Positions 1,513 through 56,860 of a DNA stretch of 64,000 nt are shown piece after piece (positions within the stretch are counted from its first letter, which is position 1; each line of letters starts with the position of its first letter). The translations under genes and the position numbers were made by a program. The notes below the pieces were generated by a model. That model was not told the DNA's origin and did not search any database. It was given only the letters and a program-made list of their open reading frames with translations. The stretch comes from Mobula hypostoma (Eukaryota): positions 169,138,001-169,202,000 of the forward strand of contig NC_086097.1 of the NCBI RefSeq assembly GCF_963921235.1. Reading direction: 5' to 3'.

Positions 1513-1643
1513 ATGAACAACATTTAAACATGCAGCAAATAAACAAAATTAATGAATTTGAGAAATTGAGCACATAACTTTATTCTAATTTATTTTCTGC
1601 AAGTCTTATCTTCTATAATACTTGAACATACATTTCCTTAGAA

Positions 1644-4081: not shown

Positions 4082-4471
4082 CTTTTAAAGCATTTGTGGC
4101 TTGAAAACCAGCTTCCTGCATACTGTTTTTCAAGCAATGCTAGGAATTCCAACTTCAACCTGCCCTTATTGGGCAAAACCAAGCAGGAAGCAGCCAGTAT
4201 ACTTCCACTGCAGGTCTTGACAGTCCATTTCTAAATGTAGTGTGTCTCATCTGCAAACAATCTTTAGAAGCAAATGCACAAATAAACAAAGTTCCAAACT
4301 GAAGTTTTGTAAGCAGTCAATTATCCACTAAATCACAAGAAGCTTGCCGTAGTCAATTTTGAAAGTCTTATTCCACAGATGCCCTTTCAAGAAGTTAGAG
4401 TCACTGTGTCTTCTCCAGGATTCATCCAGAAGCATTTTCCATTCACATTCTATGTAGCTTTAGGCAAACTC
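4082..4471 (-). other. Candidate 390-nt exon of the minus-strand gene (5' UTR with uORFs; possible start MQEAGFQATNALK at 4121)
   Basis: Acceptor gtttgtttctaatttttcag|G and donor AAG|gtatgt around non-repetitive sequence. Confidence 0.5.
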
Positions 4472-4539
4472 CTGAAAAATTAGAAACAAACTTCTTTTCA
4501 TTATCTATAGACATGAACACTGACTTGAGAGGCATTTAG

Positions 4540-5635: not shown

Positions 5636-5639
5636 GATG

Positions 5640-6170
5640 GGTCAGTTTAGGTCACTCACCTATAAGAAAAATGCAAATAAGATCAAGAGTGTTGGGAAAA
5701 TTTACAAGGATATTGTTGGGATTTCAGGACCTGAGTTATAGGGCAAGGATGAATAGGTTAGTACTTTATTCTTTAGAACGTAGAAGATTAAGGGGAGATT
5801 TGATAGAGGTATACAAAATTATGAGGGGTACAGATAGGGTTAATGCAAGTAGGCATTTTCCTCTGAGGTGAGGTGAGACTAGAATTAGATGTCATGGGTT
5901 AAGGGTGAAAGGTAAAATGTTTAAGTGGAACATGAGGGGAAACTTCTTCACTCAGAAGCTGGTGAGAGTGGTGAACAGAGCTATAAGCGCAAATGCTGGA
6001 TACAGGGCCAATTTCAACATTTCAGAGAAATTTGAATAGGTAAATGGATGGGAGGGGGATTGAGGGCTATGATTCAGGTGCAGGTCAATGGGACAAGACA
6101 AATTATTGGCTTGGCATGGACTAGTTGGGCCAAAGCCTGTTCCTGTGCTGTAGTGTTCCATGAACTATAA
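5640..6170 (+). mobile_element. CR1 LINE 3' end
   Basis: ORF 5671-5871 contains YSLERRRLRGDLIEVYKIMRG; CR1 3' UTR follows. Confidence 0.85.
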
Positions 6171-6709
6171 AATCCTAATCATCTTGACCTACCTTATCCA
6201 TGCCAGTTACAATGCTTATCTATGTTAATTTCACATCCCTCACTTGGCTCGTATCCACCTACATTTATCCTAAATAATTAACCAAAAATCTTTTAACCAT
6301 CCTAATTACATCCGTCTTTCTATCTTATTCCTGATAACCACAACTATCAGTGGGAAAAACATAAAGACCCATCCACCACTATCGCCTTCTATCACCAAGC
6401 CAATTCTGGGTTTTAACATGCCTTATGTCTTAGACTGATCCAAAAGGTTATCATATGTGACCTTGTCAAAAACCTTCCAGCCTTTGGTTTGAATTGAGAG
6501 ATATATTCTATCTTTGTTCTGCATACTGAGATATGGTGAAGTCATACGTACAGGAAATATGGTTGAGGACAACTATGGAAGAAGGGAAGCCATGATTCAG
6601 GAAGGAAGACACCAGAACAGTAGGTGTCATGCAACAAATGTGACAGAAACAAAGAAACTAAGAAAAAGGAATGCCCTCCTTATTGACAAAGGATGAGAGG
6701 ATATATAGT

Positions 6710-6941
6710 TGCCTGTAGGGAGTTTGCACGCTCTCTCCATGACCTCATGGGTTTCCTCCGGGTACTCAGGTTTCCTCCGGGTGCTGTGGTTTCCTCCCAC
6801 AGTCGAAAGACATACTGGTTGGTAAGTTAATTGGTCATTGTAAACCGTCCCGTGATTAGGATTAAATCCGAGGATTGCTGCCCACCACGGCTCAAGAGGA
6901 CGGAAGGGCCTGTTCCGCGGTGTATGTCAATAAATAAATAA
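6710..6941 (+). mobile_element. HE1/V-SINE-type SINE with a short internal duplication
   Basis: V-core gggtttcctccgggt present twice, ttaattggtcattgtaaa, and a (taaa)n tail. Confidence 0.75.
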
Positions 6942-7169
6942 CAACTGTAAGAATGCTTGTAAATTGTCTTGTTTATCTCCTGAGATAAAAACAGATAAAC
7001 CCAGAAAGGGAAGAGAAATGTCTGAGATAAACAATGTAAATGAGAGTACAATGGAAATCAGCAGCAAAAGTGATGAAATTTGAGTTCTGTATGGGTGCCA
7101 TATACAGCATCAATGCACTCATCAACATTACTGTACCACAGTTTTAAATGCCCATTACCGACACATTTT

Positions 7170-7530
7170 ACCTACTGGATCTCCTTTCCTTTCTGTTCCC
7201 ATCTGCCCACCACCTCCATTATTTGGTTTATTGCTCCATCTTCCTTTCCTATCAGATTCCATCATCTGTAGCCCTTTGTTACCTCTAGCTGTTACCTCCC
7301 AACCTCAACTGCTAATTCCATTCTTCTATCCACCATCTGCCTATTACTTATCCTTACTTAGATCCATTTATCACTTGCCAGCTCTTGCTCCACCCCTTCC
7401 CCTCACCTCATTATACTGGATACCTCCCTTCCATTTTTCAGTCCAGATGAAGGGCCCTGACACAAAACATCAACTATTTTTTCCCTTCACAGAAGACACC
7501 TTACCTGCTGATTCCAGCATCGGTAGTTTC
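7170..7530 (+). mobile_element. Penelope-like pLTR, degenerate
   Basis: Pyrimidine-rich pLTR body followed by a decayed hammerhead, cagtccagatgaagggccctgacacaaaacatc. Confidence 0.6.
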
Positions 7531-8286
7531 TCCTATCTCCAAACTAATTGGAATGATCAGTAATGTCTTTGACACAGTGAATTACATACATTTTGCCCTC
7601 TAAAAGTAAATTTCCTCTTCCTTTAAAACTTTATTTATTCTCAGGACTAAATTTACCCTCCTTACTCATTCTTAAATCATTTTCACTCCAGTTCTACAAT
7701 TTTTGATGCAAGAAGATAGAAACTGCTTGTCTTATTCCAGAACTGGTTCACCAGTCTGCACAATGTCAATGACTACTGTTCTAGTTTAAACTTTAGTGTT
7801 GTCAAGTTGAAGTTCATTATCACGTACGTGCTAGGATATAAATGCCTTGAAAACTTGCCCCAGAGACATCATAGCATTACCTTCTTTATTAGTAACTGCC
7901 ATTGCTGCATAAATCCAATTATGCTTTGAGCTTTTTGTCCAAGAAGCTCCTTCCACAACTAAGCAATGATAGTCCGCAGGTTTGTGGGTAACAAATCAGC
8001 ACAAAGATGTTCACATATTATAAAAATGAGTAAGGGCAATTTTTAAAATTTATATTGTCCTACATCAATTAATATCCACAGTCTTGAAACATTATTTCCT
8101 ACTCTGTGATCCAATACTTGTCTCATCAAAAAATTTGTTCATTCATACCAATACATATTGAAGTGTCATTCACAATACAGTGATGGTCCCAGAAATAATA
8201 ATTCTCAAACACCAGAGCAATTTGCATTTATGGCATTTACTTACCAAGTCATCTAGTCAATTTGTATAATAAACCACACTGCTTAC

Positions 8287-8332
8287 CTTTTTTTGTTGCC
8301 CTCTTGGTTGGATGGGATGGTTCTTAACAAAG
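8287..8332 (-). other. Candidate 46-nt exon
   Basis: Acceptor tactatttctgcag|C and donor AAG|gtaagc. Confidence 0.45.
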
Positions 8333-8494
8333 CTGCAGAAATAGTATCATGAATGCTAATTCAGATACCTTAATTTAATTTTGCAATAAGCGCTAGTGAA
8401 CCCAAGAATTTCATGTTATATTCCAATGTAAAGTAAATTATAAATAGAGTCATAAAGTACTACAGCACAGAAACAGGCCCTTCACCCACCTAAT

Positions 8495-9930
8495 CATGGT
8501 TAGAGCATTGGCTGATTGGTAGGAGGCAGCGAGTGGAAATAAAAGGATCCTTTTCTGGTTGGCTGCCAGTGACTAGTGGTGCTCCACAGGGGTCACTGTT
8601 GAGACCACTTTTTTTTGGGCTGTATATCAACGATTTAGATGATAGCACAGATGGCTTTGTTGCCAAGTTTGCAGATAATACGAAGATTGGTGGAGGGGCA
8701 GGTAGTGTTGAGGAAACAGGTAGGTTGCAGAGTGACTTAGACAGATTAGGAGAATGGGCAAGAGAGTGGCAAATGAAATACAATGTTGGAAAATGCACGG
8801 TCATGCACTTTGGTAGTAGAAATAACTGTGCGGACTATTTTCCAAACAGGGAGAAAATCTAAAAGTCTGAGATGCAAAAGGACTTAGGAGTCCTTGTGCA
8901 GAACAACCTAAAGGTTAACTTGCAGGTAGAATCAGTGGTGAGGAAGGCAAATGCAATGTTAGTATTCATTTCAATAGGTCTAGAATACAAGATCAGGGAT
9001 GTGATGCTGAGGCTTTATAAGGTACTGGTGAGGCCTCACTTTGAGTGTTGTGAACAGTTTTGGGCTCCTCATCTTAGAAAAAATATGCTGGCATTGGAGA
9101 GGGTTCAGAGGAATTTAACAAGGATGATACCAGGAATGAAAGTGAATGAAATGAATTAGGCATTGATTGTGTGGATAGTCAGAGGCGTTTTCCCAGGGCT
9201 GAAATGGCTAACACAAGAGGGCACAGTTTTAAGGTACTTGAAAGTAGGTACAGAGGGGATGCCAGGGGTAAGTTGTTTTTTTTTTACACAGAAAGTGGTG
9301 AGTGTGTGGAGTGGGCTGCTGGCGACTGTGGTGGAGGCGGATACAATAGGGTCTTTTAAGAGACTCCTGGATAGGTACATGGAGTTAGAAAAATAGAGAG
9401 CTATGGGCAAACCTAGGTAATTTCTAAAGTAAGTACATGTTCGGCACACCATTGTGGGCCATGGACCTGTATTGTGCTGTAGGGTTTCTATGAAAGGGTT
9501 ATACGAGGAATGTTTGATGGCTCTGGGTCCGTTTAGAAGGATGAGGGGAATCTCATTGAAACCTTTCAGATTTTGGAAGGCCTAGACAGAGTAAATGTGG
9601 AAAGAATGTTTCCCACGGTGGGGGTGTCAAAGACAAAAGGGCACAGCCTCAAGGTAGAGGGACGTCCATTTAAAATAGAGATGCACGGAAATTTCTTTAG
9701 CCAGAGGGCAGAGAATTTGTGGAATTTATTACCACAAGTAGCAGAGGAGGCCAGGTCATTGGGGGTATTTAAAGCAGATCGGTTCTTGATTGGACATGGC
9801 ATCAAAGGTTACAGGGAGAATACTGGGGAGTGGGGCTGAGGAGGGGAAAAAAGGATCAGTCATGATTAAGTGATGGAACAGACCCAATGGGCCAAATGAC
9901 CTAAATCTGCTCCTTTGTTTTATGGTCTAA
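8495..9930 (+). mobile_element. CR1 LINE RT and 3' end, interrupted by a second CR1
   Basis: ORFs 8533-8862 (SGAPQGS, YINDLD, KFADNTK), 8872-9159 and 9573-9839; CR1 tail near 9925. Confidence 0.9.
9143..9489 (+). mobile_element. Nested CR1 3' fragment of a different subfamily
   Basis: DSQRRFPRAEMANTRGHSFKV with its own 3' tail; flanked by atgaaag direct repeats at 9136-9142 and 9490-9496. Confidence 0.8.
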
Positions 9931-16034: not shown

Positions 16035-16182
16035 GTGAAGAAACAAACTACTGGAGAGACTCAGCAGGTCATGCATTATGGAGGCAGGAATTGATGCAGG
16101 GTCTTGACCCAAAATATCAACTATCCCTTAGCCTCCACAGATGTTGCCTAACCTGCTGAGTTCCTTCAGCAGTTTGTTTTCT
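16035..16182. mobile_element. Miniature inverted PLE pLTR derivative
   Basis: aaacaaactactggagagactcagcagg is inverted against cctgctgagttccttcagcagtttgttt, around a decayed hammerhead. Confidence 0.6.
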
Positions 16183-17625: not shown

Positions 17626-19353
17626 GTTAAATCAACATATGTCATGAAATGGCAAAATGTGAAGTCATCAACTAACTTTAAAATATTTCGTAACATTTTC
17701 TGTAAAGTATTTTTGGAAAGGGAACTGAGATTTGGTTGTCACTAATTTACTGGATATGTGATGAGTAGTACTTGCACTCTGTTAACATTACTCTTGTTGA
17801 AGTACTCTCAATTACACATCTTATCAAAATACAGAGCCACCATACTCTTAATAACTCAGTGAATTCAACAAATACTTTAAATTCTGTTTCATAATTTCAT
17901 TATACCCAAGACTTGACCTACATTGCGATCCTGTAGAAAATGAAAATTCAGCAATATTGGGACTCTTCTAAACTGCTTATTTTTCCAGGATCACTGGCCT
18001 GCATCTCTGCAACTTTCATTCTAGGTTACCCAACTCCAGACACTATACTCACCTGTTTCTCACCAGACACCATGAACCAAACTAAGTGCTTCTCTGGACT
18101 GAAGTAATGAATTGTTTTGCACCAACTGACATGTATTGCAAACAAAATCAATAGTTATTTGGGCAAAACTCTCTGGGATAACACAAACTTTGATGTTTCA
18201 ACAAGGTATTTTAAAATCTGTTATTTAGTTTAAGTTATTTTATCCCCAACAAATGAACGTGCCTACTGACATGTGAAACTTACCACAATCAATAGAAATA
18301 ATATTTCCCCATAATTTTGTTTGTTCTGCCCGAAATTAACTTTGAGTTCATCCTGCAATTTACTTAAGGCATTATTGTATCCTTCTCTTGTGTGAAAGGC
18401 TCTGAAGAGCAAGCAAAATAGATTGCAAAAGGAACTTATTTACAAAAATACAGATTCAATGTGGTTTTAGGAGGTACAGTCAAAGTGATTTTAAATTTTA
18501 GCCCCTGAAAGCCAATAATGGAGAGAAATTAAGTCTTAATGTAATAGATGGCATGGCAATCAGATCAGCTACTTTGACCTATTTGGAGACCTTCACCCTG
18601 GAATGCATAATTTCATCACCCGTCTCGCATAATAAGAAACTGAAGAAAGAGGAAGCCATTCTGCCCTTCACATCTCCTTGACTATTCAATAAGATCATGG
18701 TTGATTCTTTTACCTCAGCACCACGTTCTAGCATTCTTCGCAGCTAACAAGTCAAGGGTTATCAACTCAATGCAGAGTACCAAGTCTCTACCTTATTCTT
18801 GCAGTTGTCTGTATAAAGGTTCAGATAAATCTCTGGCCCATGACAAATTTTCCCACCATTAGAGTAATATTGAGTTATATTTGAGGACTGTAATGTCATA
18901 TAATTTTCAAGATAAGGTAGCGAGATTCCTTCTTATTTGAGGTGATCAATACCTGGAACATATTTGCACTACACTTCAGCTCAAATCAAAATATTGCCTG
19001 TGTCTTTATAAAAGAAGGCAGGATAACTTCATTGAACAACTGATATGACAGCCCCCAAACAAAATGTGTTTCCTTCTCCTGTTGGCACCATCACCTATTC
19101 TCCCCGCACTACCCAATGACTTCATGTTTACAGGGATTCCTTGCTGCTACATTACGTCATGGACACTGCTCTTGAACTGCCATTCCCTATCCCAAAAAGT
19201 CAAGCAAACAACTTTTAAAACCCTGATTAAAATGCAAAAAACTGCAAATGCTAGAAGTATAAAATAAAAACAAAAAATAATGGAAATATTCAGATCATGT
19301 AGTATCTAAAGAAGTGCCATTGACCTAAACTCATCAATCATTTCTCTCCAAAT

Positions 19354-20349
19354 TGTGACTAGTGGTGTCCAACAAGGATCTGTTCTGGGACCTCTACTTT
19401 TCGTGATTTTTGTTAACGACCTGGATGTGGGGGTAGAAGCGTGGGTTGGCAAGTTTGCAGACGACACAAAGGTTGGTGGTGTTGTAGATAGTGTAGAGGA
19501 TTGTCGAAGATTGCAGAGAGACATTGATAGGATGCAGAAGTGGGCTGAGAAGTGGCAGATGGAATTCAACCCGGAGAAGTGTGAGGTGGTACACTTTGGA
19601 AGGACAAACTCCAAGGGAGAGTACAAAGTAAATGACAGGATACTTGGTAGTATGGAGGAGCAGAGGGATCTCGGGGTACATGTCCACAGATCCCTGAAAG
19701 TTGCCTCACAGGTGGATAGGGTAGTTAAGAAAGCTTATGGGGTGTTAGCTTTCATAAGTCAAGGGATAGAGTTTAAGAGTTGCGATGTAATGATGCAGCT
19801 CTATAAAACTCTGGTTAGGCCGCATTTGGAGTACTGTGTCCAGTTCTGGTCACCTCACTATAGGAAGGATGTGGAAGCATTGGAAAGGGTACAGAGGAGA
19901 TTTACCAGGATGCTGCCTGGTTTAGAAAGTATGCATTATGATCAGAGATTAAGGGAGCTAGGGCTTTACTCTTTGGAGAGAAGGATGATGAGAGGAGACA
20001 TGATAGAGGTGTACAAGATAATAAGAGGAATAAATAGAGTGGATAGCCAGCGCCTCTTCCCCAGGGCACCACTGCTCAGTACAAGAGGACATGGCTTTAA
20101 GGTAAGGGGTGAGAAGTTCAAGGGAGATATTAGAGGAAGCTTTTTTACTCAGAGAGTGGTTGGTGCGTGGAATGCACTGCCTGAGTCAGTGGTGGAGGCA
20201 GATACACTAGTGAAGTTTAAGAGACTACTAGACAGGTATATGGAGGAATTTAAGGTGGGGGCTTATATGGGAGGCAGGGTTTGAGGGTCAGCACAACATT
20301 GTGGGCCGAAGAGCCTGTACTGTGCTGTACTACTCTATGTTCTATGTTC
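19354..20349 (+). mobile_element. Young 5'-truncated CR1 LINE
   Basis: Uninterrupted 309-aa RT C-terminal frame and a (ctatgtt)n tail. Confidence 0.95.
19355..20284 (+). pseudogene. CR1 ORF2 fragment (RT C-terminal half), open but 5'-truncated
   Basis: SGVQQGSVLGPLLF, FVNDLD, KFADDTK, LVRPHLEYCVQFWSP. Confidence 0.9.
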
Positions 20350-22194: not shown

Positions 22195-22985
22195 GCTACA
22201 ACTGTATAAGGAATGAAGGAATGGGCCAAACTGTATTTGGAGTATTGTGAGCAGTTTTGGGCCCATATCTAAGAATGGATGTGATTTATTTCCCAGCTCT
22301 TTACTTCACCCCTCCTTCTCCCGGTTTCACCTATCACCTTGTGTTTCTTCCTCCCCTCCCCCCACCTCCTTACTCTGAATCCTCTTCTTCTTTCCTCCAG
22401 TTCTGATGAAGGGTCTTGGCCCAAAATATCGACAGTATGCTGAGTTCCTCAAGCATTTTGTATGTGTTGCTTGGATTTCCAACATTTGCAGATTTTCTCC
22501 TGTTTGTGAAGGATGTGCTGGCATTGGAAAGGGTCCAGATGTGGTTTACAAGCATGATCATGGGAATGAAAAGGTTAAAGTATAATGAGCATTTGATGAT
22601 GCCTGGCTTGTATTTGCTGGAGTTTAGAAGAATTGAGGAGGGGATCTCATTAAAACCTACCAAATATTAAAAGGCCTAGATATAGTGAGTCCTCTGGTCC
22701 TAGATTCAGAATGCAAGCACATCCCTTTAGAACAGAGATGAGCAGGAATATCTTTACCCAGAGGGTGGTGAATCTGTGGAACTCATCGCCACAGTTAGCT
22801 ATGGAAGCCACATCATTTAAAGCCGAGGTTGATAGGTTCTTGAATAGGAATGGTGTCAAAGGTTATGGGAAGAAAGCAGTAGGAGAGTGGGGTTGAGAAG
22901 GAAAAAAGCAGCCAGAATCAAATGGTGGAGCAGACTTAATGGGCTGAATGGCCTAAATCTGCTCCTATGCCTTATGGTGTTATGC
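22195..22985 (+). mobile_element. CR1 3' end interrupted by a PLE pLTR (about 22284-22509)
   Basis: The CR1 frame resumes after the insert; ggatgtg is duplicated at the insert borders; hammerhead-like ctgatgaagggtcttggccc near 22403. Confidence 0.8.
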
Positions 22986-23317: not shown

Positions 23318-24229
23318 TAAGGAAGAGAACATTTGCAGATGCTGGAAATCCGAGCAATACACACAAAATGCTGGAGGAACTCAGCAGGCCAGGCAGCATC
23401 TATGGAAAAAAGTACAGTCAATGTTTTGGGTCCAAATCCTTCGGCAGGACTGGAGAGAAAAAAAGCTGAGGAGTAGATTTGAAAGATGGGGGCGGGGGGG
23501 GGGAAGAGAAATGCCAAGCGATAGGTGAAATTTGGAGGGACAGGGATGAAGAAAGAGCTAGGAAGTTGATTGGTGAAAGAAACAAAAGGCCATGGGAGAA
23601 AGAAGAAAGTGGGGAGAGGAGACCTAGAGGGAGGTGATGGGCGGGCAAGGAGATAACATGACAGAGGGACAAGGGGATTGGAAATGGTGAAGGGGGGAGG
23701 GTGGAGGCCAGAACAAGTGTGATCTCCCAGTGGCCACCCATTTCCATTCCAATACATCCATCCATAGCCTCCTCCACTGTCAGGATAGGGACACACTTAG
23801 GTTGGGAGAACAACACCTTATATTCCGTTTCGGTAACCTCCAAACTGATGGCACGATCATCAATTTCTCCAACTTCCGATAATGCCTCTATCCTGCCCCC
23901 TTCACCATTTCCTATCCCCTTGTCCCTCTCTCACGTTATCTCTTAGCCAGCCCATCGCCTCCTCTGGTACTCCTCCGCCCACCCCCCTTTTCTTCTTTCT
24001 TCCATGGCCTTCTGTCTCTTTCACCAACCAACTTCCTAGCTCTTTGCTTCATCCCTACCCATCCAAGTTTCACCTATCACCTGGCGTTTCTCTCTATCCT
24101 ACCCCCACCTTTCAAATCTACTCCTCAGCTTTTTTCCTCCAGTCCTTCGGCCCAAAACGTTGACTGTACTTCTTTCCATAGATGCTGCCTGGCCTGCTGA
24201 ATTCCTCCAGCATTTTGTGTGTGTTGTTA
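23318..24229 (+). mobile_element. Penelope-like element with inverted 5' pLTR
   Basis: Minus-strand pLTR at about 23320-23700, then GIY-YIG C-terminal relic (LGWENNTL in the ORF track) and a plus-strand pLTR; 11-bp TSD tgttaaatata at 23307-23317 and 24230-24240. Confidence 0.85.
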
Positions 24230-25799: not shown

Positions 25800-28700
25800 A
25801 TTTAAACTAGCTGGCTAGCTGCCAAGGAGCTACGCCATTGATGTCCTACGTGATGAGGCCAAACTCCCTGTAGACTTGCTTAAAGTTGTAATACAATAAA
25901 CATGATAATATAAGTACATATTTTAATGTCACATTTGCTGCATATACCCAACTCGGTTTACAGATTAGACAAAATCACTAAACAAAGTATTACATACACC
26001 CTTGGAGGTCGACGGCGGGGGGGGGGCGCGGTAAGGGGTGGATATGGGGTTGCGGGGAGCGGGGTGCTACCTCGCTGAAGTGGTGGTGTTACCTCCCTGA
26101 AATGAGTTTTTGCAGGGTGGGATGTCTGAGGATGTATCCTGGAACTGTGCATCACACTTTAGGGTCTGCCCTCAAAATCACAGCTCAGAGCCAAAATATC
26201 AGACTGAATTCCAAACTTTTGAAATCCATTGAGGATTTAAAAGGCACGTTCATAGTTTCTGCGTAATACGGATTATTTCAACAACAATTTGCACTTATTA
26301 GCATCAGTCATACTGGAATCACCCTAAGGCAATTTACAGAAGTATTATCAAATAAAATTTAACACTGGGCCACAAGGAAATGTTAAGAACATATGACTAA
26401 AAGAATTACCAATATATTAGCTTTAAAACAAACCTCACTGGGAGTTGTAGGCCTAAGCACCGGTGGTGAGACATGATTAGGTGATCAGAACTGAAAAAAC
26501 ACTGCCTCTCCACCTTTTTTCAAATTCACACTGTTCTTTTAGTGAAGTAACCAGTCATTTTGAGCCACTTCCCACTTCTGATTTGTGTTCTCCCATCTCT
26601 TCAACTCCCCAATTCAATATGGTTTTAATTTGCACCAAGGAGGAGCCAAATTAAAATGTGAAATAACAAAAGCAATAAAACTCTAGTGTGGAAATTGCTC
26701 ACAATGTCATAGGTACATTCTAAAGCTAAAGCAAAATAACTATTTGGTGTCACAATCCACCTTCAACATAAATCAAAGAGGAGCCTGGACTAACACCACA
26801 CAACTGAACTCTTAGTGGCCTTCAAAACCTAATCATCATGATGAGTGGAGAGAGGCATAACCACCATGTATAACAACAGTACTGCTTTTTGAACACCGTT
26901 AACACATATGAAGGAATCCAAGATTAAAAGTATGAGATATAAACACCTGACAATATTATGCTTCAAGAAACAATAACATTGAAATGAGGCTTGTATCATA
27001 TGTTTATTCAGGAAGGGTAAAAACACAGATTTAGTTGAGTATCAAAACTGAAAGAGAAATGTGTCAGTATGGGACATGATGCTTTCCTTTGGATATCTTT
27101 GATCAGATACAGAACAAAAGTGGCATTAAATGAATATCTTGCTTAAAGCCATTAGTTTTAAGATGATGAAACAGCATTGCACGAACAACATTTGGTTCAC
27201 TGGGACATGGGTTTATGACCATGATAGAAACCACATGTATGTAAAGAAAACTCAGAGACAATTAGTTTGTTCCTTTCAGAAAATGTTAACAAAATTTCAC
27301 TGAAATCACTGCACCACTGTGATAAAACACAAACAGGATCTCAACATTTTAAGACAAAATTCTACCATTTTAAACTTAATGCTAAATTTGCATGATTCTG
27401 TTTTTATGCAATATTTCATTTATCACCCACACATAATAGAGTACAACACTCTCCTGAAGTCCATAATTATAAAATGAATTACAACTCTTGCACTATTACA
27501 GGGTAACCTGAATCTACTTTAGACCATAAGACACAGGAGCAGAATTAGGCCATGCAGCCCATTTCATAATGGCTGATCACAGATCCCATTCAACCCCATA
27601 CATCTGCTTTCTCGCTATATCCTTTGATGTCCTGACAGATCAGGAAACTATCAACTTCCGCCTTAAATGTATCCATGAACTTGGCCTCCACGGCAGTCTG
27701 CGGCAGAAAATTCCTCCTTACCTCCATTCTAAATTGTCACCCCTCAGTGTTGAGGCTGTGCCCTCTTGTTCTGGATATCCCCACCATACAAAGCATCCTC
27801 TCTACATCCACCTTATCTACCCTTTCAACATTCAGTAGGTTTCAATGAGATCCTCACACATTCTTCTAAATTCCAGTGACTGCAGGCCCAAAGCTGCCAA
27901 ACACGCCCCTTATGTTAACCCCTTCATTCCTGGAATCATCCTCGTAAACCTCCTCTAGACTCTCTCCAATAACAACACATCCTTTCTGAGATATGGAGCC
28001 CAAAACTGTTGACAATACTCCAAGTGCAGCCTGACTGTGTGTGTGTCCTCAGCATTATCTCCTTCCTTTTATATTCTATTCACCTTGAAATAAATGCCAA
28101 CGTTGCATTTGCCTTCTTTACCACAGACTCAACCTGTAAATTAACCTTCTGGGAGTCTTGCACGAGGACTCCTGAGTCCCTCTGCACCTCTGACGTTTGA
28201 ACCTTCTCCCCATTTAGATAATAGTCCACAATCTTGTTCCTTTTACCAAAATACATTACCATACATTTCCCATCACTGTATTTCATCTGCCCCTTTGCTG
28301 CCATTCTTCCCATTTGTCTGAGTCCTGCTGTAATTGCATTGCTTCCTCAACACTACCTACCCCTCCACCTATCTTCAAACTTTACCACAAAGCCATCAAT
28401 TCCATTGACAAACAATGTGAAAAGTAACGGCCCCAATGCTGACCCCAAAGGAACACCACTACTCACTGGCAGCCATCCAGAATGGGCCCTCTTTATTCCC
28501 ACTTGCTGTCTCCTGGCTGTCAGCCATTCCACTATCCATGCCAATATCTTTCCATAGGATTTTATCTTGTTAAGCAACCTCATGTGTGGTGCCTTATCAA
28601 ATGCCTTCTGAAAACCCAAGTAAATGACATCCACTGCCTCTCCTTTGTCCACTCTGCTTGTTACTTTATCGAAGAATTTTAACAGATTTATCGGGCAAGA

Positions 28701-29691
28701 TTTCCCTTTAAAGAAACCATGCTGACTTTGATTTATTTTATCATTAATCTCCAAGTACCCCGAAACGTGATCCTTAATAATAAACTCCAACACTTTCCCA
28801 ACCACTAAGGTTAGGCTAACTGGCCTACAATTTCCTTTCTTTTGCCTTCCTCCCTTCATAAGAGATGGAATAACATTTGCAATCTTCCAGTCCTCCGAGA
28901 CTATGCCAGAATCAAGTGACTCTTAGAAACATAGAAAACCTACAGCACAATACAGACCCTTTGGCCCACAAAGCTGGCTGAACATGTCCTTACCAGAGAA
29001 ATTACCTGAGGTTACCCATAGCCTTCTATTTTTCTGTCCAGGAGTCTCTTAAAAGACCCTATCGTATCCACCTCCACCACCGTCGATGACAGCCCATTCC
29101 ACACACTCACCACTCTCTGCGTAAAAAACTTACCCCTGACATCTCCTCTGTAACTACTTCCAAGCACCTTAAAACTGTGCCCTCTCATGTTAGCCATTTC
29201 AGCCCTGGGAAAAAGCCTCTGACTATCCACACGATCAATGCCTCTCATCATCTTATACACCTCTATCAGGTCACCTCTCATCCTCCGTCACTCCAAGGAA
29301 AAAAGGCTGAGTTCACTCAACCTATTCTCACAAGGCATGCTCCCCAATCCATGCAACATCCTTGTAAATCTCCTCTGCACCCTTTCTATGGTTTGCACAT
29401 CCTTCCTATAGTGAGGTGACCAGAACTGAGCACAGTACTCCAACTGGGGTCTGACCAGTGTCCTATATAGCTGCAATATTACCTCCCGGCTCCTAAACTC
29501 AATCCCACGATTGATGAAGGCCAATGCACCATATGCTTTCTTAACCACAGAGTCAACTTGCGCAGCAGACTTGAGTGTCCAATGGACTCAGACCCCAAGA
29601 TCCCTCTGATCCTCCACACTGCCAAGAGTCTTACCATTAATACTATATTCTGTCATCATATTTGACCTATCAAAATGAACGACTTCACACT

Positions 29692-30357
29692 TAAGCAACA
29701 CACATCAAAGTTGCTGGTGAACACAGCAGGCCAGGCAGCATCTCTAGGAAGAGGTACAGTCGACGTTTCGGGCCGAGACCCTTCGTCAGGACTAACTGAA
29801 GGAAGAGCTAGAAAGAGATTTGAAAGTGGGAGGGGGAGGGGGAGATCTGAAATGATAGGAGAAGACAGGAGGGGGAGGGATGGAGCCAAGAGCTGCACAG
29901 GTGATTGGCAAAAGGGACATTAGAGGATCATGGGCCAGGAGGCCCAGGGAGAAGAAAAAGGGGGAGGGGGGGAAAAACCCAGAGGATGGGCAAGGGGTAT
30001 AGTTAGAGGAACAGAGGGAGAAAAAGGAGAGAGAGAGAAAGAATGTGTGTATATAAATAAATAACGAATGGGGTACGAGGGGGAGGTGGGGCATTAGCGG
30101 AAGTTAGAGAAGCCAGTGTTCATGCCATCAGGTTGGAGGTGACCCAGGCGGAATATAAGGTGTTGTTCCTCCAACCTGAGTGTGGCTTCATCGTTACAGT
30201 AGAGGAGCCTGTGGATAGACATATCAGAATGGGAATGGGACGTGGAATTAAAATGTGTGAGATGCTGCCTGGCCTGCTGCGTTCACCAGCAACTTTGATG
30301 TGTGTTGCTTGAATTTCCAGCATCTGCAGAATTCCTCGTGTTTGCGTTTTTAATTTC
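29692..30357 (-). mobile_element. Penelope-like element (GIY-YIG C-terminus and pLTR) with inverted 5' pLTR and tail
   Basis: HFNSTSHSHSDMSIH.LL...LRLEEQHLIFRLG.LQPDGMN on the minus strand; inverted pLTR piece at 30260-30350; 10-bp TSD acttcacact at 29682-29691 and 30358-30367. Confidence 0.9.
29758..29793 (-). ncRNA. Minimal type I hammerhead ribozyme in a PLE pLTR
   Basis: Minus strand reads AGTC-CTGACGA-A-GGGT CTCG GCCC-GAAA-CGTC^GACT: intact core, stems I and II, loopless palindromic stem III. Confidence 0.8.
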
Positions 30358-31625
30358 ACTTCACACTCATCTGGGTTGAACTCCATTTGCCACTTTTCAG
30401 CCCAGCTTTGCATCCTATCAATATCCCACTGTAATCTCTGACAGTCCTCCACACTATCCACAACACCCCCAACCTTTGTGTCATCAGCAAATTTACTAAC
30501 CCATCCCTCCACTTCTTCATCCAGGTCATTTATAAAAACCACAAAGAGTAGGGGTTCCAGAACAGATCGCTGAGGCACACCACTGCTGACCGACCTCCAT
30601 GCAGAATATGACCCATTTACAACCACTCTTTGCCTTCTATGGGCAAGCCAGTTCTGGATCCACAAAGCAAGTTCCCCTTGGATCCCATGCCTCCTTACTT
30701 TCTCAATAAGCCTTGCATGGGGTACCTTGTCAAATGCCTTGCTGAAATCCATATACACTACATCTACTGCTCTTCCTCATCAATGTGTTTAGTCACATCC
30801 TCAAAATATTCAATCAGGCTCGTAAGGCTGTAAGTCATCCCTACAATTGCCAAGATCCTTTTCCATAGTGAATACTGAAGCAAAGTACTCATTAAGTACC
30901 ACTGCTATCTCCTCTGTTTCCATACACACTTTTCCACGGTCACACTTGATTGTTCCTATTCTCTCACGTCTTATCTTCTTGCTCTTAACATACTTGTAGA
31001 ATGCCTTGGAGTTTTCCTTAATCCTCTCTGCCAAGGACTTCTCATGGCTCCTTCCGGCTCTCCTAATTTCTTTCTTGAGCTCCTTCCTGCTAGCCTTATA
31101 ACCTTCTAGCTCTCTATCATTACCTGGCCTTTTGAACCTTTCATAATCTTTTCTTTTCTTCTTGACTAGATTTATAACAGCCTTTGTACACCACGGTTCC
31201 TGTATCTTACCATCCTTTCCCTGTCTCATTGGAACGTACCTATGCAGAACTCCACGCAAATAACCCCTGAGCATTTGCCACATTTCTTCCATACATTTCC
31301 CCGAGAGCATCTTGAAAGATCATAACCAAGAAAGATTATTTCTTCAGCAACCTCTCTCAAGACTCTGGGATGTAGTCCATCTGGCCCAGGTGATTTATCC
31401 ACCTTAAGACCTTTGAGGTTGCCCAGCACTTTTTTCTTTGTAAAAGCAATGACACTCACTCCTGCTCCCTGACACTCGTGGACCTCTGGCACACTGCTAG
31501 TATCTTCCACAATGAAGACTGATGCAAAGTACCTACTGGAAGTTCATCTGCAATTTCTTTTTCCCCATCACTACCTCAACACCATCATTTTCCAGTGGTC
31601 CAATATCAACTCTCACCTCCCTTTT

Positions 31626-31919: not shown

Positions 31920-33538
31920 CTGTGGCATGCAAAAGTTTGGGCACCCGTGGTCAAAATTTCTGTTATTGTGAATCACTAAGCGAGTAAAAGATGACCTGAT
32001 TTCCAAAAGGCATAAAGTTAAAGATGACACATTTCCTTAATATTTTAAGCAAGAAAACTTTTTTATTTCCATCTTTTACAGTTTCAAAATAACAAAAAAG
32101 GAAAAGGGCCTGAAGTAAAAGTTTGGGCACCCTGCATAGCAGTACTTAGTAACACCCTCTTTGGCAAGTATCACAGCTTATAAACGCTTTCTGTAGCCAG
32201 CTAAGAGTCTTTCAATTCTTGTTTGGGGGATTTTCGCCCATTCTTCCTTGCAAAAGGCTTCTAGTTCTGTGAGATTCTTGGGCTGTCTTGCATGCACTGC
32301 TCTTTTGAGGTCTATCCACAGATTCACGATGATGTTTAGGTCAGGGGACTGTGAGGGCCATGGCAAAACCTTCAGCTTGCGCCTCTTCAGGTAGTCCACT
32401 GTGGATTTTGAGGTGTGTTTAGGATCATTATCCTGTTGTAGGAGCCATCCTCTTTTCATCTTCGGCTTTTTTACAGACGGTGTGATGTTTGCTTCCAGAA
32501 TTTGCTAGTATTTAATTGAATTCATTCTTCCCTCTACCGGTAAATGTTTCCCGTGCCACTGGCTGCAACACAAGCCCAAAGCATGATCGATCCACCCCCG
32601 TGTGCTTAACAGTTGGAGAGGGGTTCTTTTCATGAAATTCTGCACCCTTTTTTCTCCAAACATACCTTTGCTCATTGCAGCCAAAAAGTTCTATTTTAAC
32701 TTCATCAGTCCACAGGACTTGTTTCCAAAATGCATCAGGCTTGTTTAGATGTTCCTTTGAACCTTTAGAATAGAACTTTTTTGGCCGCAATGAGCAAAGG
32801 TATGTTTGGAGCAAAAAGGGTGCAGAATTTCATGAAAAGAACCCCTCTCCAACTGTTAAGCATGGGAGTGGATTGATCATGCTTTAGTCTTGTGTTGCGG
32901 CACGGGGAACATTTACTGGTAGAGGGAAGAATGAATTCAATTAAATACCAGCAAATTCTGTAAGCAAACATCACACCGTCTGTAAAAAAGCCAAAGATCT
33001 AAAGAGGATGGCTCCTACAACAGGATAATGATCCTAAACACAACTCAAAATCCACAATGGATTACCTCAAGAGGCTCAAGCTGAAGGTTTTGCCATGGCC
33101 CTCTCAGTCCCCCGACCTAAACATCATCGAAAATCTGTCAATAGACCTCAAAAGAGCAGTGCATGCAAGATGGCCCAAGGACCTCACAGAACTTAGAAGC
33201 CTTTTGCAAGGAAGAATGGACGAAAATCTCCCAAACAAGAATTGAAAGACTCTTAGCTGGCTACAGAAAGTGTTTACAAGCTGTGATACTTGCCAAAGGG
33301 GGTGTTACTAAGTATTGACCATGCAGGGTGCCTAAACGTTTGCTTCGGGCCCTTTTCCTTTTTTGTTATTTTGAAACTGTGAAAGATGGAAATAAAAAAG
33401 TTTTCTTGCTTAAAATATTAAAGAAATGTGTCATCTTTAACTTCATGCCTTTTGAAAATCAGTTCATCTTTTACTCACTTAGCTATTCACAGTAACAGAA
33501 ATTTTGACCACGGGTGCCCAAACTTTTGCATGCCACTG
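31920..33538. mobile_element. Fold-back Tc1/mariner element made of two inverted 3' halves
   Basis: TA|ctgtggcatgcaaaagtttgggcacc ... ggtgcccaaacttttgcatgccactg|TA; QQDNDPKH and WPSQSPDLN encoded on both strands; IR/DR-type inner repeat near 32117. Confidence 0.95.
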
Positions 33539-38405: not shown

Positions 38406-38729
38406 CTAGGGGTCTGTGAAAGCTGAGTTTAGTTATCCATATGGTACCATTCATTTTAGACAAGTTGAACACAATACAGGATGAAAGATCAAAACAACTT
38501 GTCCAAAAAGACTTTGAAGTCAGTGTTGATAGGTAATTAAAATGTCCTGGCCAGGGAAAATAAATAATCAAATGAGTATTGCAATTCTATGCTTTATATC
38601 TGGAGATCTAAAGACAATGATGCATCTGTACAAAAGCCTGTTTACATCGGAGTACTATGTTAATGTCTGGGGAAAATATGCATAAGTAAAATATTGAACA
38701 TGCGGGTAATCGGAGGTGAAGTTGGAAAA

Positions 38730-38825
38730 CTGAAGAAGGGTCTCGGCCTGAAATGTTGATTGTTTATTCATTTCCACAGATGCTGCCTGACCTGCTGAGC
38801 TCCTTCAGCATTTTGAGTGTTGCAT
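38730..38825 (+). mobile_element. PLE pLTR fragment starting at the hammerhead core
   Basis: ctgaagaagggtctcggcctgaaatgttg...gatgctgcctgacctgctgag. Confidence 0.7.
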
Positions 38826-39374
38826 TTTTTCATAATTTATTTTTGAAATTTATAGTAATTTTCATCTTTTCATTGTATTGCTGCCACAAAACAAATTTCA
38901 TGTCATACAAGCCACTGATAATAATTTTGATTCTGATTTTGAAGTTCTCAACAAGTCCAGCAGCATCACACAGTTAATGTTTTGGGTCAATACTCTTCGA
39001 TCAGAAAATTTCTGTAATTTTTTTACAGTACTGTTGGGGAGGCATCTCAATTGTTTATTATTAAGAATATTGATACTGAGGAGATGGAGTGTAGATTTGA
39101 CTGGCACCTTGTGTGCCTCTGTTAGAGGTGGAGGGAAGAGACACCTTATATGTATCATAGGCTTTGTCCTGATTTATTTATTTTAAATAGTTATTCACTG
39201 CTAATTGCATAGATTTCAATGTCTCATAAAAGTAGTTTTATCTAAAATATTGCCTTTTCTAAACATTTAAATAAGATTTTTCATGTTAGATGTTAACTGA
39301 TTTTTTCAAATATATTTTGTTTTAATTTTTTAAAACAAGTGACAGAATGGGTAATTATACATGACATCAAACTG

Positions 39375-39820: not shown

Positions 39821-40046
39821 CAATTGTATTGCCCAGTATACACTATCTACACAGGTTATCCACTTTGAACCCAACAAGAATAAAGACTCCTCCTGCCCCA
39901 ATGTTTTTCTCTTCTTTCCTCTCCCATTGGACAGAAGATACAAAAGCTTGGAGCACATTCCACCAGATTCAAAGACAGCCTTTATCTCACTGTTAGCAGA
40001 CTTGAGTGGACCTCTTGTATGCTGTAGATGAACTAGTCTATCTCGA

Positions 40047-40439
40047 ACAACAGGAATTCTGCAGATGCTGGAAATTCAAGCAACACACATCAAAGTTGCT
40101 GGTGAACGCAGCAGGCCAAGCAGCATCTATAGGAAGAGGCGCAGTCGACGTTTCAGGCCGAGACCCTTCGTCAGGACTAACTGAAGGAAGAGTGAGTAAG
40201 GGATTTGAAAGCTGGAGGGGGAGGGGGAGATGCAAAATGATAAGAGAAGACAGGAGGGGGAGGGATGGAGCCGAGAGCTGGACAGGTGATAGGCAAAAGG
40301 GGGATACGAGAGGATCATGGGACAGGAGGTCCAGGAAGAAAGACAAGGGGGGGGTGACCCAGAGGATGGGCAAGAGGTATATTCAGAGGGACAGAGGGAG
40401 AAAAAGGAGAGTGAGAGAAAGAATGTGTGCATAAAAATG
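40047..40439 (-). mobile_element. Young PLE pLTR insertion
   Basis: Closely similar to 29692-30060; 12-bp TSD agtctatctcga at 40035-40046 and 40440-40451. Confidence 0.9.
40143..40178 (-). ncRNA. Minimal type I hammerhead ribozyme
   Basis: AGTC-CTGACGA-AGGGTCTCGGCCT-GAAA-CGTC^GACT. Confidence 0.75.
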
Positions 40440-45274: not shown

Positions 45275-46092
45275 ACTTGAAACTAGGGAAACTGGACTCA
45301 AGAGGGAAAACTTACAAAACACTAGTATTATTGATGTCCCACACAAAATGTGGTACATACACACAATCATTCCAAAATAAGCAAGATCTGTGTGCATTAA
45401 AAATTAAATGGTACATAAATACTCTTAACCTTTGAGGAGCATTGGATGACAAAACTCTGTGCAGTAGTTGAAGTCCGAGGTGTAAATGGTGAAGAGAAAG
45501 GGAGACAAGACAGTCCCCTGTGGAGCCCCAGTGTTGCTGATCACTCTGTCGGACACACAGTGTTGCAAGCACACGTACTGTGGTCTGCCAGACAGGTAAT
45601 CAAAAATCCGTGATACCAGGGGAGCATCCACCTGCATCGCTGTCAGCTTCTCCCCCAGCAGAGCAGAGCGGAGCGGATGGTGTTGAATGCACTGGAGAAG
45701 TCAAAAAACATGACCCTCACAGTGCTCGCTGGCTTTTCCAGGTGGGCGTAGACACGGTTCAGCATGTAGACGGTGGCATCCTCAACTCCTAGTCGGGGCT
45801 GGTAGGCGAACTGGAGGGGATCTAAGTGTGGCCTGACCATAGGCCGGAGCAGCTCCAGAACAAGTCTCTCTAGGGTCTTCATGATGTGGGAGGTCAATGC
45901 CACAGGTCTGTAGTCATTGAGGCCACTGGGGTGTGGCGTCTTTGGCACAGGGACGAGGCAGGACGTCTTCCACAGTACAGGAGCCCTCCAGAGCCTCAGG
46001 CTCAGTTTGAAGACGTGGCGAAGTACTCCACGTAGCTGAGGGACACAGGCTTTGAGCACCCTGGTACTGACACCATCTGGTCCTGCAGCCTT
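45275..46092 (-). mobile_element. Rex1 LINE RT fragment
   Basis: KAAGPDGV, LNDYRPVALTSHIMKTLE, DPLQFAY, MFFDFSSAFNTI, TGAPQGTVLSPFLFTIYTSD. Confidence 0.9.
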
Positions 46093-46949
46093 GCAGCCTC
46101 TAAGGAAGATGGTTGTCATTGCAGGAGGGCAATGCAACTTGTAATTAATTTGTTTTTCTTGTGAATGTTGCTTATATTATGCTATGTGCCTGTGATATTG
46201 CTGCAAGTAGGTTTTTCATTGCACATGTGCATATGACAATATACTCGACTTGGCTTTACCTAGAGGTGTTCCTCAGCGCGTGCACTACACCCTATCATTC
46301 TCAGATGCTTTAACTATCACCTCCTCCCAGCAGAGAAGTGGGAATATTTGCTGGTAATTGTTCATTTCTATTTGCAGGTGCTCATTAAATGAAATATTGC
46401 ATGCCTGCATGCAGCAAGATCTAGCTTTCAAACAGAACCAAGCTATTGATAAATAATATTCAGTGACCACCTGCATTTACTCTCAACAGTCAACAGCAAT
46501 TCTGTCACTGGGTCCTTCAATATCAACATACGGTGGTCACCATAGACGAGAAGGTTAACCGGATGAGCTAACTGTGATGACGAGAGCCGGTGAGAATCTG
46601 AATATGAGAGACTGATCACCAACCTTTTAAATGGTCCGTATGTAACCACTTTGGCAATCCTAGATACATCTGCACCCCAATTTCCCAGAAGGACTTGGAA
46701 GTTAAAGGGTTAAGCTGATGACTTTCCAGAGTAAGGAAAGATCCAGCAATGGAAAGTGCATCATTTACATACAAGCCTGTATTATTTACCAATGATCAGC
46801 TTTTAACAAGTTTCTATTAGTTTTACAAAGGTTGGATTCTCATTTCTTGTAGCTGATCACTATAATTGTCTCTATATTTCTTGAATATCATGGGAATTTG
46901 CCAAACATGAAGTTCATATAATGTCAAGGGCACAACTACTGAGTTTCAA

Positions 46950-47880
46950 TTCTGTATTGTGTGCAGTTCTGGTTGGCTAGCTGTATGAAGGGTGTCATTG
47001 AGTTGGAAAGGGTGTAGAAAAGATTTACAAGGATGTTGCCAGAACTGGGAGGCTTGAGTTATAAGAGACTGCAGCTGTTTTTTTTTTCCCCTGGCTTGCA
47101 GGAGACTGAAGGATGACCTTATAGAACTTATAATATAATAAGGGGCATAGATAAGATGAATGGTCACAATCTATATCCCAGAGTTGGAGAGAGTAAAAAC
47201 TGAGTTTTAAGCTGAAAGTGGAAAGATTTAAAGGGACTCTGAGGAATAGCTTTCTCACATGGAGGCTGGTGGGTACATGGAATGAGCTGGCAGAGGAAGG
47301 TAAGGGCAGTTGATGTTGTGCCAACTTTTTAACCTACTCCAAGATTAATCCTTATCTCCACTTAGTCATCATTTTTCTTTCTTCCATGTACCTAGCTAAG
47401 AGTTTCTTAAATGTCCCTAAGGTATCTACCTCTACCATCACCCCTGGCAGTGTGTTCCACATATAGTACCTGCCACTCTCTGTGTAAAAAACCTGCCACT
47501 GACATCATACCTATACTTTCCTTTCATCGCATTAAATTATGCCGTCTTGTATTAGCCATTCCCGATTGAGGAACATGGTGCACTGGCTGTTCATTTTACC
47601 TATGCCTCTTATCATCTTATATATCTGTATCAATCACATTTCATGACATTTAGACAAGCAGATGGATTGGAATGGTTAGAGGGATATGAGGCAAGTGATT
47701 CTAGCTCAAGTACTGATTAAGGGTCTCAGTCCAAAATGTTGACTGTTTATTCCTTTCGACAGATGCTGCCTGACCTAGTGAGTTCCTTCAGTACTTTGTA
47801 TGTGTTACCTGGATTTCCAGCATCTGCACAATATCTTGTGTTTATGATCTAGCTCAATAGGCAACTTGATCACATGGATG
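46950..47880. mobile_element. Mosaic of a plus-strand CR1 3' end, a minus-strand CR1 (about 47305-47640) and a PLE pLTR (about 47710-47850)
   Basis: CR1 motifs on both strands; decayed hammerhead ctgattaagggtctcagtccaaaatgttgactg. Confidence 0.7.
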
Positions 47881-50689: not shown

Positions 50690-51270
50690 ATGGTAGAGTC
50701 AAAAAAGAACTGCTCGAGAAACCCAGCAGGTCATCCAGCATCCATGGAGTGAGAAGGATAGTGATGTTTTCCACACCCACTGTCCACGTCCCTCCATAAA
50801 GGTACCTGATTCACTGGGTTCCCCAAACATCTCTTTTATTTGTTCCAGATTCTAGCATCTGATTCCAACATGTGATGGCTCTGGACCTTTACTCATTGGA
50901 GTTTAGAAGAATAAGGGGACATCGCATTGAAACTTACCGAAAATTGAAAGGGCTGGAGAGAGTGGATGTGCAGAGGATGTTTTCGTAGTGAGCGAGTCAA
51001 GGACCAGAGGGCACACTCTGGTTAATAGTGTGATGAGGAGGCAGCTTCTATGAAGGGAATAAACAGTTGACATTTCATGCTGAGATCAGCTTATGTTCCT
51101 TCCCCTCCCCCACCTTCTTATTCTGGTTTCTGCCTTCTACCTTTCTAGTCCTGATCAAGGGCCTCAGCCCAAAATGTCGAGTTTATTCCCCTCCCTGATG
51201 TTGCCTGACTCGTGAGTTCCTCCAGCATTTTGTGTGTGCTGCTCAGTATCGCCAGCATCTGCAGACTTAG
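50690..51270. mobile_element. Two small inverted PLE derivatives around a CR1 fragment (about 50870-51020)
   Basis: pLTR motifs in both orientations; agtcctgatcaagggcctcagcccaaaatgtcga near 51147. Confidence 0.6.
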
Positions 51271-51848: not shown

Positions 51849-51980
51849 AACACACACAAAAATGCTGGTGAACGCAGCAGGCCAGGCAGCATCTTTAGGA
51901 AGAGGTACAGTTGACGTTTCGGGCCAAGACCCTTCGTCAGGACTAAAATTTCCAGTATCTGCAGATTTCCTCGTGTTTGC
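51849..51980 (-). mobile_element. 132-bp hammerhead-only PLE derivative
   Basis: Minus-strand hammerhead and pLTR end plus an inverted tail of about 34 nt; aatcagaa flanks at 51841-51848 and 51981-51988. Confidence 0.8.
51909..51944 (-). ncRNA. Minimal type I hammerhead ribozyme
   Basis: AGTC-CTGACGA-AGGGTCTTGGCCC-GAAA-CGTC^AACT; core intact, one stem I mismatch. Confidence 0.7.
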
Positions 51981-53197
51981 AATCAGAATCAGGTTTATTA
52001 TCACCGGCATGTGTCATGAAATTTGTTAACTTAGCAGCAGCAGTTCAATGTAATACATAATATAGAAGAAAAAAAAGTAAATCAATTACAGTATACGTAT
52101 AATGAATAGATTAAAACCTGTGCAAAAACAGAAATAATATATATTAAAAAAGTGAGGTAGTGTTCACAGAATCAAAGTCCATTTAGGAATTGGGTGGCAG
52201 AGAGGAAGAAGCAGTTCCTGAATCATTGAGTGTGTGCCTTCAGGCTTCTGTATCTCCTACCTGATGGTAACAGTGAGAAAAGGTCATGCCCTGGGTGCTG
52301 GAGGTCCTTAATAATGGACACTGCCTTTCTGAGACACTGCTCCTTGAAGATGTCCTGGGTACTTTGTAGGCTAGTACCCAAGTTGGAGTCAACTAAATTT
52401 ACAACCCTCTTTCGGTCCTTTGCAGTAGTCCCCTTCCCTCCTACCCAGACAGTGATGCAGCCTGTCAGAATGCTCTCTACAGTACATCTATCGATGTTTT
52501 TGAGTGTTTTTGTTGACATACCAAATCTCTTCAAATTCCTAATGAAGTATAGTCATTGTCTTGCCTTCTTTATAACTGCATCGGTATGTTGGGACCAGGT
52601 TAGATCCTCAGAAATCTTGACACCCAGGAACTTGAAACTGCTCACTCTCTCCACTTCTGATCCCTCTATGAGGATTGGTATGTGTTCCTTCATCTTACCC
52701 TTCCTGAAGTTCACAATCAGCTCTTTTGTCTTACTGACGTTGAGTGCCAGGTTGTTGCTATGACACCACTCCACTAGTTGGCATATCTCGCTCCTGGACG
52801 CCTTCTCATCTCCAACTGAGATTCTACCAACAATAGTTGTATTGTCAGCAAATTTATAGATGGTATTTGAGCTATGGCTAGCCATACAGTCATGTGTATA
52901 CAGAGAGTAGAGCAGTGGGCGAAGCACACATCCCTGAGGTGCACCAGTGTTGATCATCAGTGAGGAGGAGATATTATCACCAATCCACACAGATTGTAGT
53001 CTTCCGGTTAGAAGGTTGAGGATCCAATTGCAGAGGGAGGTACAGAGGTCCAAGTTCTGTAACTTCTCAATCAGGATTGTGGGAATGATGGTGTTAAATG
53101 CTGAGCTCTGGTCGATGAACAGCATCCTGACGTAGGTGTTTGTATTGTCCAGGTGGTCTAAGGCTGTGTGAAGAGCCTTTGAACTTGCGTCTGCCGA
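51981..53197 (-). mobile_element. Rex1/Babar LINE, RT to 3' end
   Basis: ORFs 52553-53125 ([24 protein letters not shown]) and 52223-52534; (aatcag)n tail. Confidence 0.92.
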
Positions 53198-56474: not shown

Positions 56475-56860
56475 GGTTGCAGATGTTGCATTTTGGACAA
56501 CAGGCAGGATGCTGGTGGATCTCAGCAGGTCAGGCAGCAATTATGGAGGGAAATGGATAGTTGACATCTTGGGTCAAGAGCCTGCAGCTGGACTAAGAGA
56601 TAGAGGGGAGCCAGCCAATGCAAAGAGGTGAGGGAAAGAGAAGATCAAAAGCTAGCAAGCAACAGGTGGATCCAGGTGAGATGAGGTGATAGGCAGATGG
56701 AGAAGGAGGGATGGAAACAGTAACAACAGAGAGCTGAAGATGATGGAATCCAATAGGAGAGGAAGGTGGAGCATGAAAGGAAGGTAGGGAGGTTGGAAGA
56801 ACAGGCAGGAACAGTTGGGATGGGGAAGTACTGGAAGGAATGTGAGGGTAATAGGTAAAC
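56475..56860 (-). mobile_element. PLE pLTR, degenerate
   Basis: gcagatgttgca...ctcagcaggtcaggcagca followed by a purine-rich body; decayed hammerhead near 56560-56595. Confidence 0.65.

Follow-up and report, generated by a model that had tools for sequence, protein, structure and literature searches.

The minimal hammerhead ribozyme (min-HHR) was defined by Cervera and De la Peña in 2014, who noted an extra base and a palindrome in the motif and described its massive genome-wide occurrence in metazoans (PMC4209133). A review citing Lünse et al. agrees with them on the minimal motif (PMC6765202). In fishes, the min-HHR sits in the pseudo-LTRs (pLTRs) of Xena, Poseidon and Neptune elements, and genomes hold thousands of single copies as well as close pairs on opposite strands. 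A single min-HHR gave no cleavage and dimers cleaved weakly (PMC4209133). No cartilaginous fish was found in the main-text portion of that study or in two of its supplement files. PLE-derived retrozymes have been reported in vertebrates, including one chondrichthyan (2026 preprint, bioRxiv 10.64898/2026.07.22.740005). Literature searches for PLE hammerheads in sharks or rays and for the A6C core change in PLEs, with subscription papers, Repbase and Dfam outside their scope, returned nothing relevant.

The elements themselves have been described by Craig et al. (2021, PMC8557442), who name partial tandems, an inverted copy truncated at its 5' end and an optional tail of 30-40 nt among PLE features, and for whom a CX2-5CxxC linker marks Neptune and Nematis. 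The PLE hammerhead may be needed for processing, dispensable, or parasitic. In PAc, a Poseidon element of Anolis, catalytic mutants of the hammerhead leave insertion unchanged (Frangieh et al. 2024, PMC11167929). Its cleavage needs protein, its reverse transcription starts at two internal sites a tail apart, and the study reports no reads found ending at the cut. The A6C change itself is known from the phage hammerhead Bcep176, where it goes with low activity (PMC3088659) and moved activity toward Mn2+ (PMC7151607).

The window, that is, the whole 64-kb stretch of DNA analysed here, holds an intact 36-nt motif at 29758..29793 on the minus strand. The initial annotation had read it as a hammerhead with an extra A and a loopless stem III, and the letters are exactly as first read. 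A 4-bp stem I opens the motif, followed by C3-A9, the extra A, a 4-bp stem II with a tetraloop, G12-A14, a loopless palindromic ACGU and C17; the 3' strand of stem I closes it. The core reads CUGANGA / GAAA / UH in type I order, and both the extra base between 9 and 10.1 and the palindromic 15.2-16.2 without a loop are present, so that the minimal type I anatomy proposed for it matches the min-HHR of PMC4209133. A G10.1-C11.1 pair closes the base of stem II here and in older subfamilies. The predicted cut falls after GUC, between 29762 and 29761. An Rfam cmscan of the window gave no hammerhead among five matches at E<=10, and Rfam thus misses motif copies, in keeping with the probable lack of annotation that had been supposed. 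A loose core pattern matched the window five times, and 12 of 100 shuffles gave as many, which is chance level on its own.

The motif at 29758 belongs to a 0.67-kb insertion inside a CR1-like LINE (RT match 30120-30776), with the following parts:

29682..29691, target-site duplication, copy 1 (10 nt), in the CR1-like LINE
29693..29757, minus strand, PLE 3' tail, short form
29758..29793, minus strand, the intact motif
29794..30096, minus strand, pyrimidine-rich 3' UTR / pseudo-LTR upstream of the motif
30097..30258, minus strand, C-terminal piece of a GIY-YIG endonuclease, 5'-truncated (tblastn, 81.5% to residues 695-759 of the L017 ORF)
30259..30357, plus strand, inverted 5'-truncated partner, long tail only, motif absent
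30358..30367, target-site duplication, copy 2

An inverted partner was likewise present in all nine of the other top loci of the first genome search.

About a dozen copies had been claimed for the window. An ungapped scan of both strands with the 36-nt motif gave 12 matches at <=14 mismatches and 11 at <=12, whereas 50 block shuffles averaged 0.24 matches and never exceeded 2 at <=14, with none at <=12. The motif was found at all 12 places named: 11 were among the ungapped matches, and the copy near 24140, whose core is deleted, was found by blastn at 24147-24226. Besides the motif at 29758, the copies are:

7440..7475, plus strand, decayed, old subfamily, 10 mismatches
16087..16122, plus strand, decayed, old subfamily, 12 mismatches, with an inverted tail piece at 16038-16086
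22399..22434, plus strand, decayed, 7 mismatches
23416..23451, minus strand, decayed, A6C subfamily, inverted partner of the copy at 23709-24226
23709..24226, plus strand, partner copy with the endonuclease end at 23709-23879 and the core-deleted motif (~24140)
38726..38761, plus strand, decayed, core letters kept, stem I and palindrome lost
38972..39007, minus strand, extra relic absent from the initial annotation, 14 mismatches
40143..40178, minus strand, youngest subfamily (U11.1, G·U at the base of stem II), in an element at ~40046-40438 with a long tail
47709..47744, plus strand, decayed, 8 mismatches, long tail
51147..51182, plus strand, decayed, 7 mismatches, with an inverted piece at 51039-51087
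51909..51944, minus strand, intact core, A1.1 breaking the closing pair of stem I, in a mini-copy starting at the stem I edge
51947-51980, inverted tail piece beside the 51909 motif
56559..56594, minus strand, decayed, old subfamily, 11 mismatches

A profile search of the window gave 18 matches, tail-only pieces counted. Eleven window matches span the motif and four of these keep the core letters; only the copies at 29758 and 40143 pass a structural descriptor with both stems. Intact cores had been assigned to 29758, 40143 and 51909 on the minus strand, and this holds for the core letters but not for all of the stems: stem I of 51909 is broken (G1.1>A) and 40143 has a G·U pair. The U11.1 of 40143 does not reflect decay but a state to which the youngest subfamily is fixed. 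The nine copies described as decayed are present, seven on the plus and two on the minus strand, except that the C at position 6 of 23416 is a subfamily state rather than decay. The window copies are single or inverted, not direct tandems. Other repeats in the window include a match to an integrase zinc-binding domain at 60044-60523, likely an LTR retrotransposon remnant, a DDE_3 match at 32178-32504, likely a Tc1-like transposon remnant, and LINE RT fragments at 8494-8862, 19310-20284, 28353-28922, 45643-46176 and 52553-53197.

The very large number of motif copies expected for this genome is borne out by counts over its 3.48 Gb. Exact patterns gave 44,702 young 35-mers starting at G5, 7,474 strict C11.1 copies, 85,789 young tails and 20,697 older tails; reversed-pattern controls gave 0 matches. 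A 600-kb sample, made up of sixty 10-kb stretches at round positions on 17 large contigs and hence not strictly random, held 116 matches, 80 of which cover the motif. The core is kept in 19 of these 80, with both stems and the palindrome in 12 (15-24% intact), and damaged in 61. By extrapolation, the genome would hold ~670,000 matches, 460,000 of them motif-bearing (367,000-577,000), with 110,000 core-intact copies (66,000-172,000) and ~87,000 that pass the descriptor (49,000-143,000). Intact-looking copies number in the tens of thousands and decayed ones likely reach several hundred thousand; the majority are probably inert insertion leftovers.

The Penelope-like origin proposed for the repeats is upheld by full-length copies. 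These carry, in order, a motif, a 5' region, a single ORF of ~1,040 codons (RT, CxxC linker, GIY-YIG), the 3' UTR, a second motif and the tail. Truncated copies have a tail of either length, frequently alongside an inverted partner and with duplicated target sites. Among 25 loci with the 5' part of the ORF, six have a same-strand motif upstream, and 10 of 20 longer loci (the six picked for their upstream motif plus 14 more) have two same-strand motifs ~3.5-3.7 kb apart around the ORF. The direct pLTR repeats are 88-99.7% alike, and at locus L138 the frame is unbroken over 1,044 codons. In loci selected for long open frames, matches to RVT_1 and GIY-YIG (E 9e-5 and 7e-4 for the L017 ORF, 6e-5 and 0.03 for that of L138) all fall below the Pfam cut-offs, and a CX2-5CxxC linker was found between RT and EN. 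The ORF has 519 homologues at E<=1e-20 among 8000 scored, the best named one, 71% identical, coming from the bamboo shark Chiloscyllium punctatum, which makes a cartilaginous-fish host likely; the ORF was not found in a protein atlas. The element is an endonuclease-bearing PLE, likely of the Neptune clade, the clade being assigned by a linker motif also found in Nematis.

Several details of these loci may be recorded here. In L138 (2252-2340) and L143, the open frame begins ~90 nt past the motif start and the long tail overlaps the first codons; an ATG at that frame start was seen in the youngest subfamily only. L139 is a full-length copy whose proline-rich N-terminal region contains an in-frame duplication of ~64 codons. 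L017 also has an 818-codon LINE-type RT frame free of stops (1511-3967), head-to-head with the PLE ORF.

Where insertions begin was examined in the first 100 young tails on one contig (C1, first 3.4 Mb), picked regardless of motif. The 5' ends of 25 copies lie within -5..+9 of the stem I start, against seven in +10..+24, six in +25..+39 around the cut and five in +40..+54 (stem I edge vs cut, p 9e-4); inverted partners are not independent in these counts and microhomology blurs the ends by a few bases. A further 35 copies extend >300 nt upstream, into the ORF end. The templates look uncut, because the 5' ends cluster at the stem I edge and not at the cut, in agreement with PAc in vitro (PMC11167929). 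Cleavage as the origin of the 5' ends was rejected, since just two of the 100 lie 1 nt or less from the cut. An upstream first exon joined to stem I by splicing was also considered and rejected: copies starting there share no upstream sequence. The cluster, of which the window offers an example at 51946, sits beside a pyrimidine tract ending in AG. Tails are short in 60 of these 100 copies and long in 40, which, by analogy with PAc, fits two reverse transcription start sites a tail apart.

Most of the decay in dispersed copies falls on CpG sites, as in neutral DNA, and the test for selection was therefore placed between source lineages. The majorities of five subfamilies (8 to 50 copies each) differ at one to four of the 36 motif positions, all of them in loop II, at N7, at position 6 or at 11.1 (G-C to G·U), apart from a probable CpG artefact. 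The adjoining 60 nt show 4-15 differences plus indels, and synonymous ORF divergence is 0.27-0.76 for every pair except the two youngest. In the comparison set beforehand, the core was thus better conserved across subfamilies than flanks or synonymous sites. As judged from these alignments, the motif is constrained between source lineages, with counts that are partly forced by collection on motif likeness; in the distant subfamily, five of eight copies came from a core-fixing pattern, so that conservation there is partly built in. Within the family, stems I and II show no compensatory pair change. Another family with the same core has a different, paired stem II. A genome-wide pattern with stem II unconstrained picked up, among its first 100 matches, several further families in which an unrelated stem II accompanies the same core; in one of them it folds into 7 bp. 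A longer, unrelated stem II goes with the shared core and ACGU in at least three other motif families (L316:1501-1534, L329:1501-1532, L074). Frames upstream of the motif in L329 read like a different GIY-YIG end and gave no tblastn match to the Neptune-type ORF.

Two of these changes mark subfamilies. U11.1 was found in 57 of 57 youngest-subfamily copies by hand count (first 100 of the 44,702 matches) and in 49 of 50 in the subfamily set, and this fixation rules out mere CpG decay for that subfamily. In the first 100 matches, C11.1 occurs in 13 of 42 copies with one flank type and in 0 of 57 with the other, a single row being of a third type. Position 6 of the mid-age subfamily departs from the hammerhead core, with 29 C, 1 T and 0 A in 30 copies, which had been selected on their upstream flank by a pattern reaching no further than G5. 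This A6C subfamily makes up 10 of 69 long sample copies, or ~58,000 genome-wide (28,000-107,000). Compared with the young one, its ORF end is changed at 36 synonymous and five non-synonymous sites; since pN/pS is 0.04 and stops are absent, the ORF was under purifying selection and the lineage encoded a working protein. An ORF-only tree of 39 rows, for which four rows were rejected and 13 young rows thinned at random, places the young A6 clade as sister to one C6 copy (97/95) and rejects C6 as a single clade (p-AU 0.013). Two further apparent C6 sisters of the young clade proved to be extraction chimeras and were dropped. The topology fits a return to A6, or recombination at position 6, and rests on one C6 copy. 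A wider account, in which the genome would record a natural experiment on the purpose of PLE hammerheads, is possible but not likely: an autonomous subfamily with the activity-lowering A6C change may have spread to tens of thousands of copies, the active lineage may descend from it and have gone back to A6, and new copies may be made from uncut RNA beginning at the outer edge of the ribozyme. If true, the element could jump without the ribozyme, which would act as a tunable brake or a step in processing.

Folding models, which ignore tertiary contacts, place the monomer in a best fold that pairs the core with ACGU-C and so buries it (-11.9 kcal/mol, z -0.96), and no single-motif z-score was significant (-0.25 to -1.26). 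With standard pairs, a double hammerhead can be built geometrically from the copies at 29758 and 40143 but not from that at 51909. In the models a competing duplex reaches -32.1 kcal/mol and two monomers -23.8, so the active dimer fold, at -14.7, is not the one predicted to be most stable, which fits the low activity reported for such motifs.

Collectively, it is probable that the motifs are minimal hammerheads in the pLTRs of an EN+ PLE, likely Neptune, and that the window copies are truncated, probably inert products of its insertion. By analogy with PLE biochemistry, the element protein would nick DNA and begin reverse transcription inside the RNA at the tail, giving two 3' ends, and reverse transcription would read through the uncut motif, often stopping at its 5' edge. 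In source elements, selection may keep the motif as a weak ribozyme that cuts after GUC only when two motifs, such as those in both pLTRs of one transcript, pair via ACGU. Help from the element protein would likely be needed for this cut, which would be dispensable for the insertion of copies.

A rather unlikely alternative is that the 36 bases owe their conservation to a non-catalytic role, as an internal promoter or transcript start, a splice acceptor or a binding site of the element protein, the hammerhead being a non-cutting relic. Such a role would suit the pile-up of insertion starts at the outer 5' boundary of stem I, next to a pyrimidine tract with AG at its end, the amplification of an A6C subfamily (29 C, 1 T, 0 A; pN/pS 0.04), the disfavoured active fold, and a conservation that spans all 36 bases and not the core alone. 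However, the changes that are tolerated lie in loop II, N7 and a wobble, the same core recurs with an unrelated stem II in other families of the genome, and the related PAc motif does cleave with protein (PMC11167929). Further, the young lineage is A6 although its nearest ORF relative is C6.

Sheer numbers (44,702 exact young 35-mers; ~87,000 descriptor-passing copies, 49,000-143,000) might suggest that the dispersed copies work in large numbers as self-cleaving RNAs, cutting host transcripts by pairing via ACGU in cis or in trans. This is very improbable: single minimal motifs failed to cleave (PMC4209133), the window copies lie far apart or inverted, insertion starts cluster away from the cut (25 vs six of 100), an A6C subfamily amplified with an ORF under purifying selection, 61 of 80 sample copies have a damaged core, dispersed copies decay at CpG like neutral DNA, and for PAc no cut-ending reads were reported (PMC11167929). 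Least probable of all is that the repeats have a life cycle of their own as a non-autonomous family of tandem retrozymes or SINEs. Many copies are indeed ~100 nt long with their own duplications, and PLE-derived retrozymes are reported in vertebrates (bioRxiv 10.64898/2026.07.22.740005), but 5' ends are staggered, 35 of 100 copies reach >300 nt upstream into the end of the ORF, few short repeats lie head to tail, with no tandem arrays of a short fixed unit found, and the same sequence is the pLTR of full-length elements.

For the preferred reading, that of minimal hammerheads in the pLTRs of a PLE, the kind was published in 2014 (PMC4209133), and what is new is a cartilaginous-fish family with an unusually high copy number. 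Because the kind is already known, the main addition is an abundant family of this fish group missed by Rfam-based annotation. The family also offers a test bed, with young full-length two-motif elements and natural A6, C6, C11.1 and U11.1 variants, in which the genomic success of variants could be set against their cleavage rates.

Compared with the known systems, the motif is like the min-HHR in its type I topology, the extra base between 9 and 10.1, the loopless palindrome 15.2-16.2 and the short stem I (PMC4209133), as well as in its place in both pLTRs and its mostly single dispersed copies with some close inverted pairs. Stem II has 4 bp here versus 7-8 in the schistosome motifs, and, unlike the min-HHR described there, the youngest subfamily has G10.1·U11.1 and the mid-age one C6. 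The element resembles Neptune EN+ PLEs in its RT, CX2-5CxxC linker, C-terminal GIY-YIG, partial tandems, inverted partner and 30-40 nt tail, and no structural difference from those described in PMC8557442 was found. Like PAc, it has its motif at the beginning of the ORF or shortly before it, a pair of 3' ends separated by the length of a tail, and a lack of support for a cut-RNA template; PAc belongs to another clade, and its open frame begins inside the motif, whereas that of the present element begins ~90 nt after the motif start. The C6 subfamily has the A6C core change in common with the Bcep176 variant (PMC3088659, PMC7151607), but Bcep176 is an assayed, intergenic phage ribozyme, whereas the change here is fixed in a vertebrate retroelement subfamily. 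Finally, the copy number is 10-100 times the 4,000-9,000 of coelacanth and Xenopus (PMC4209133).
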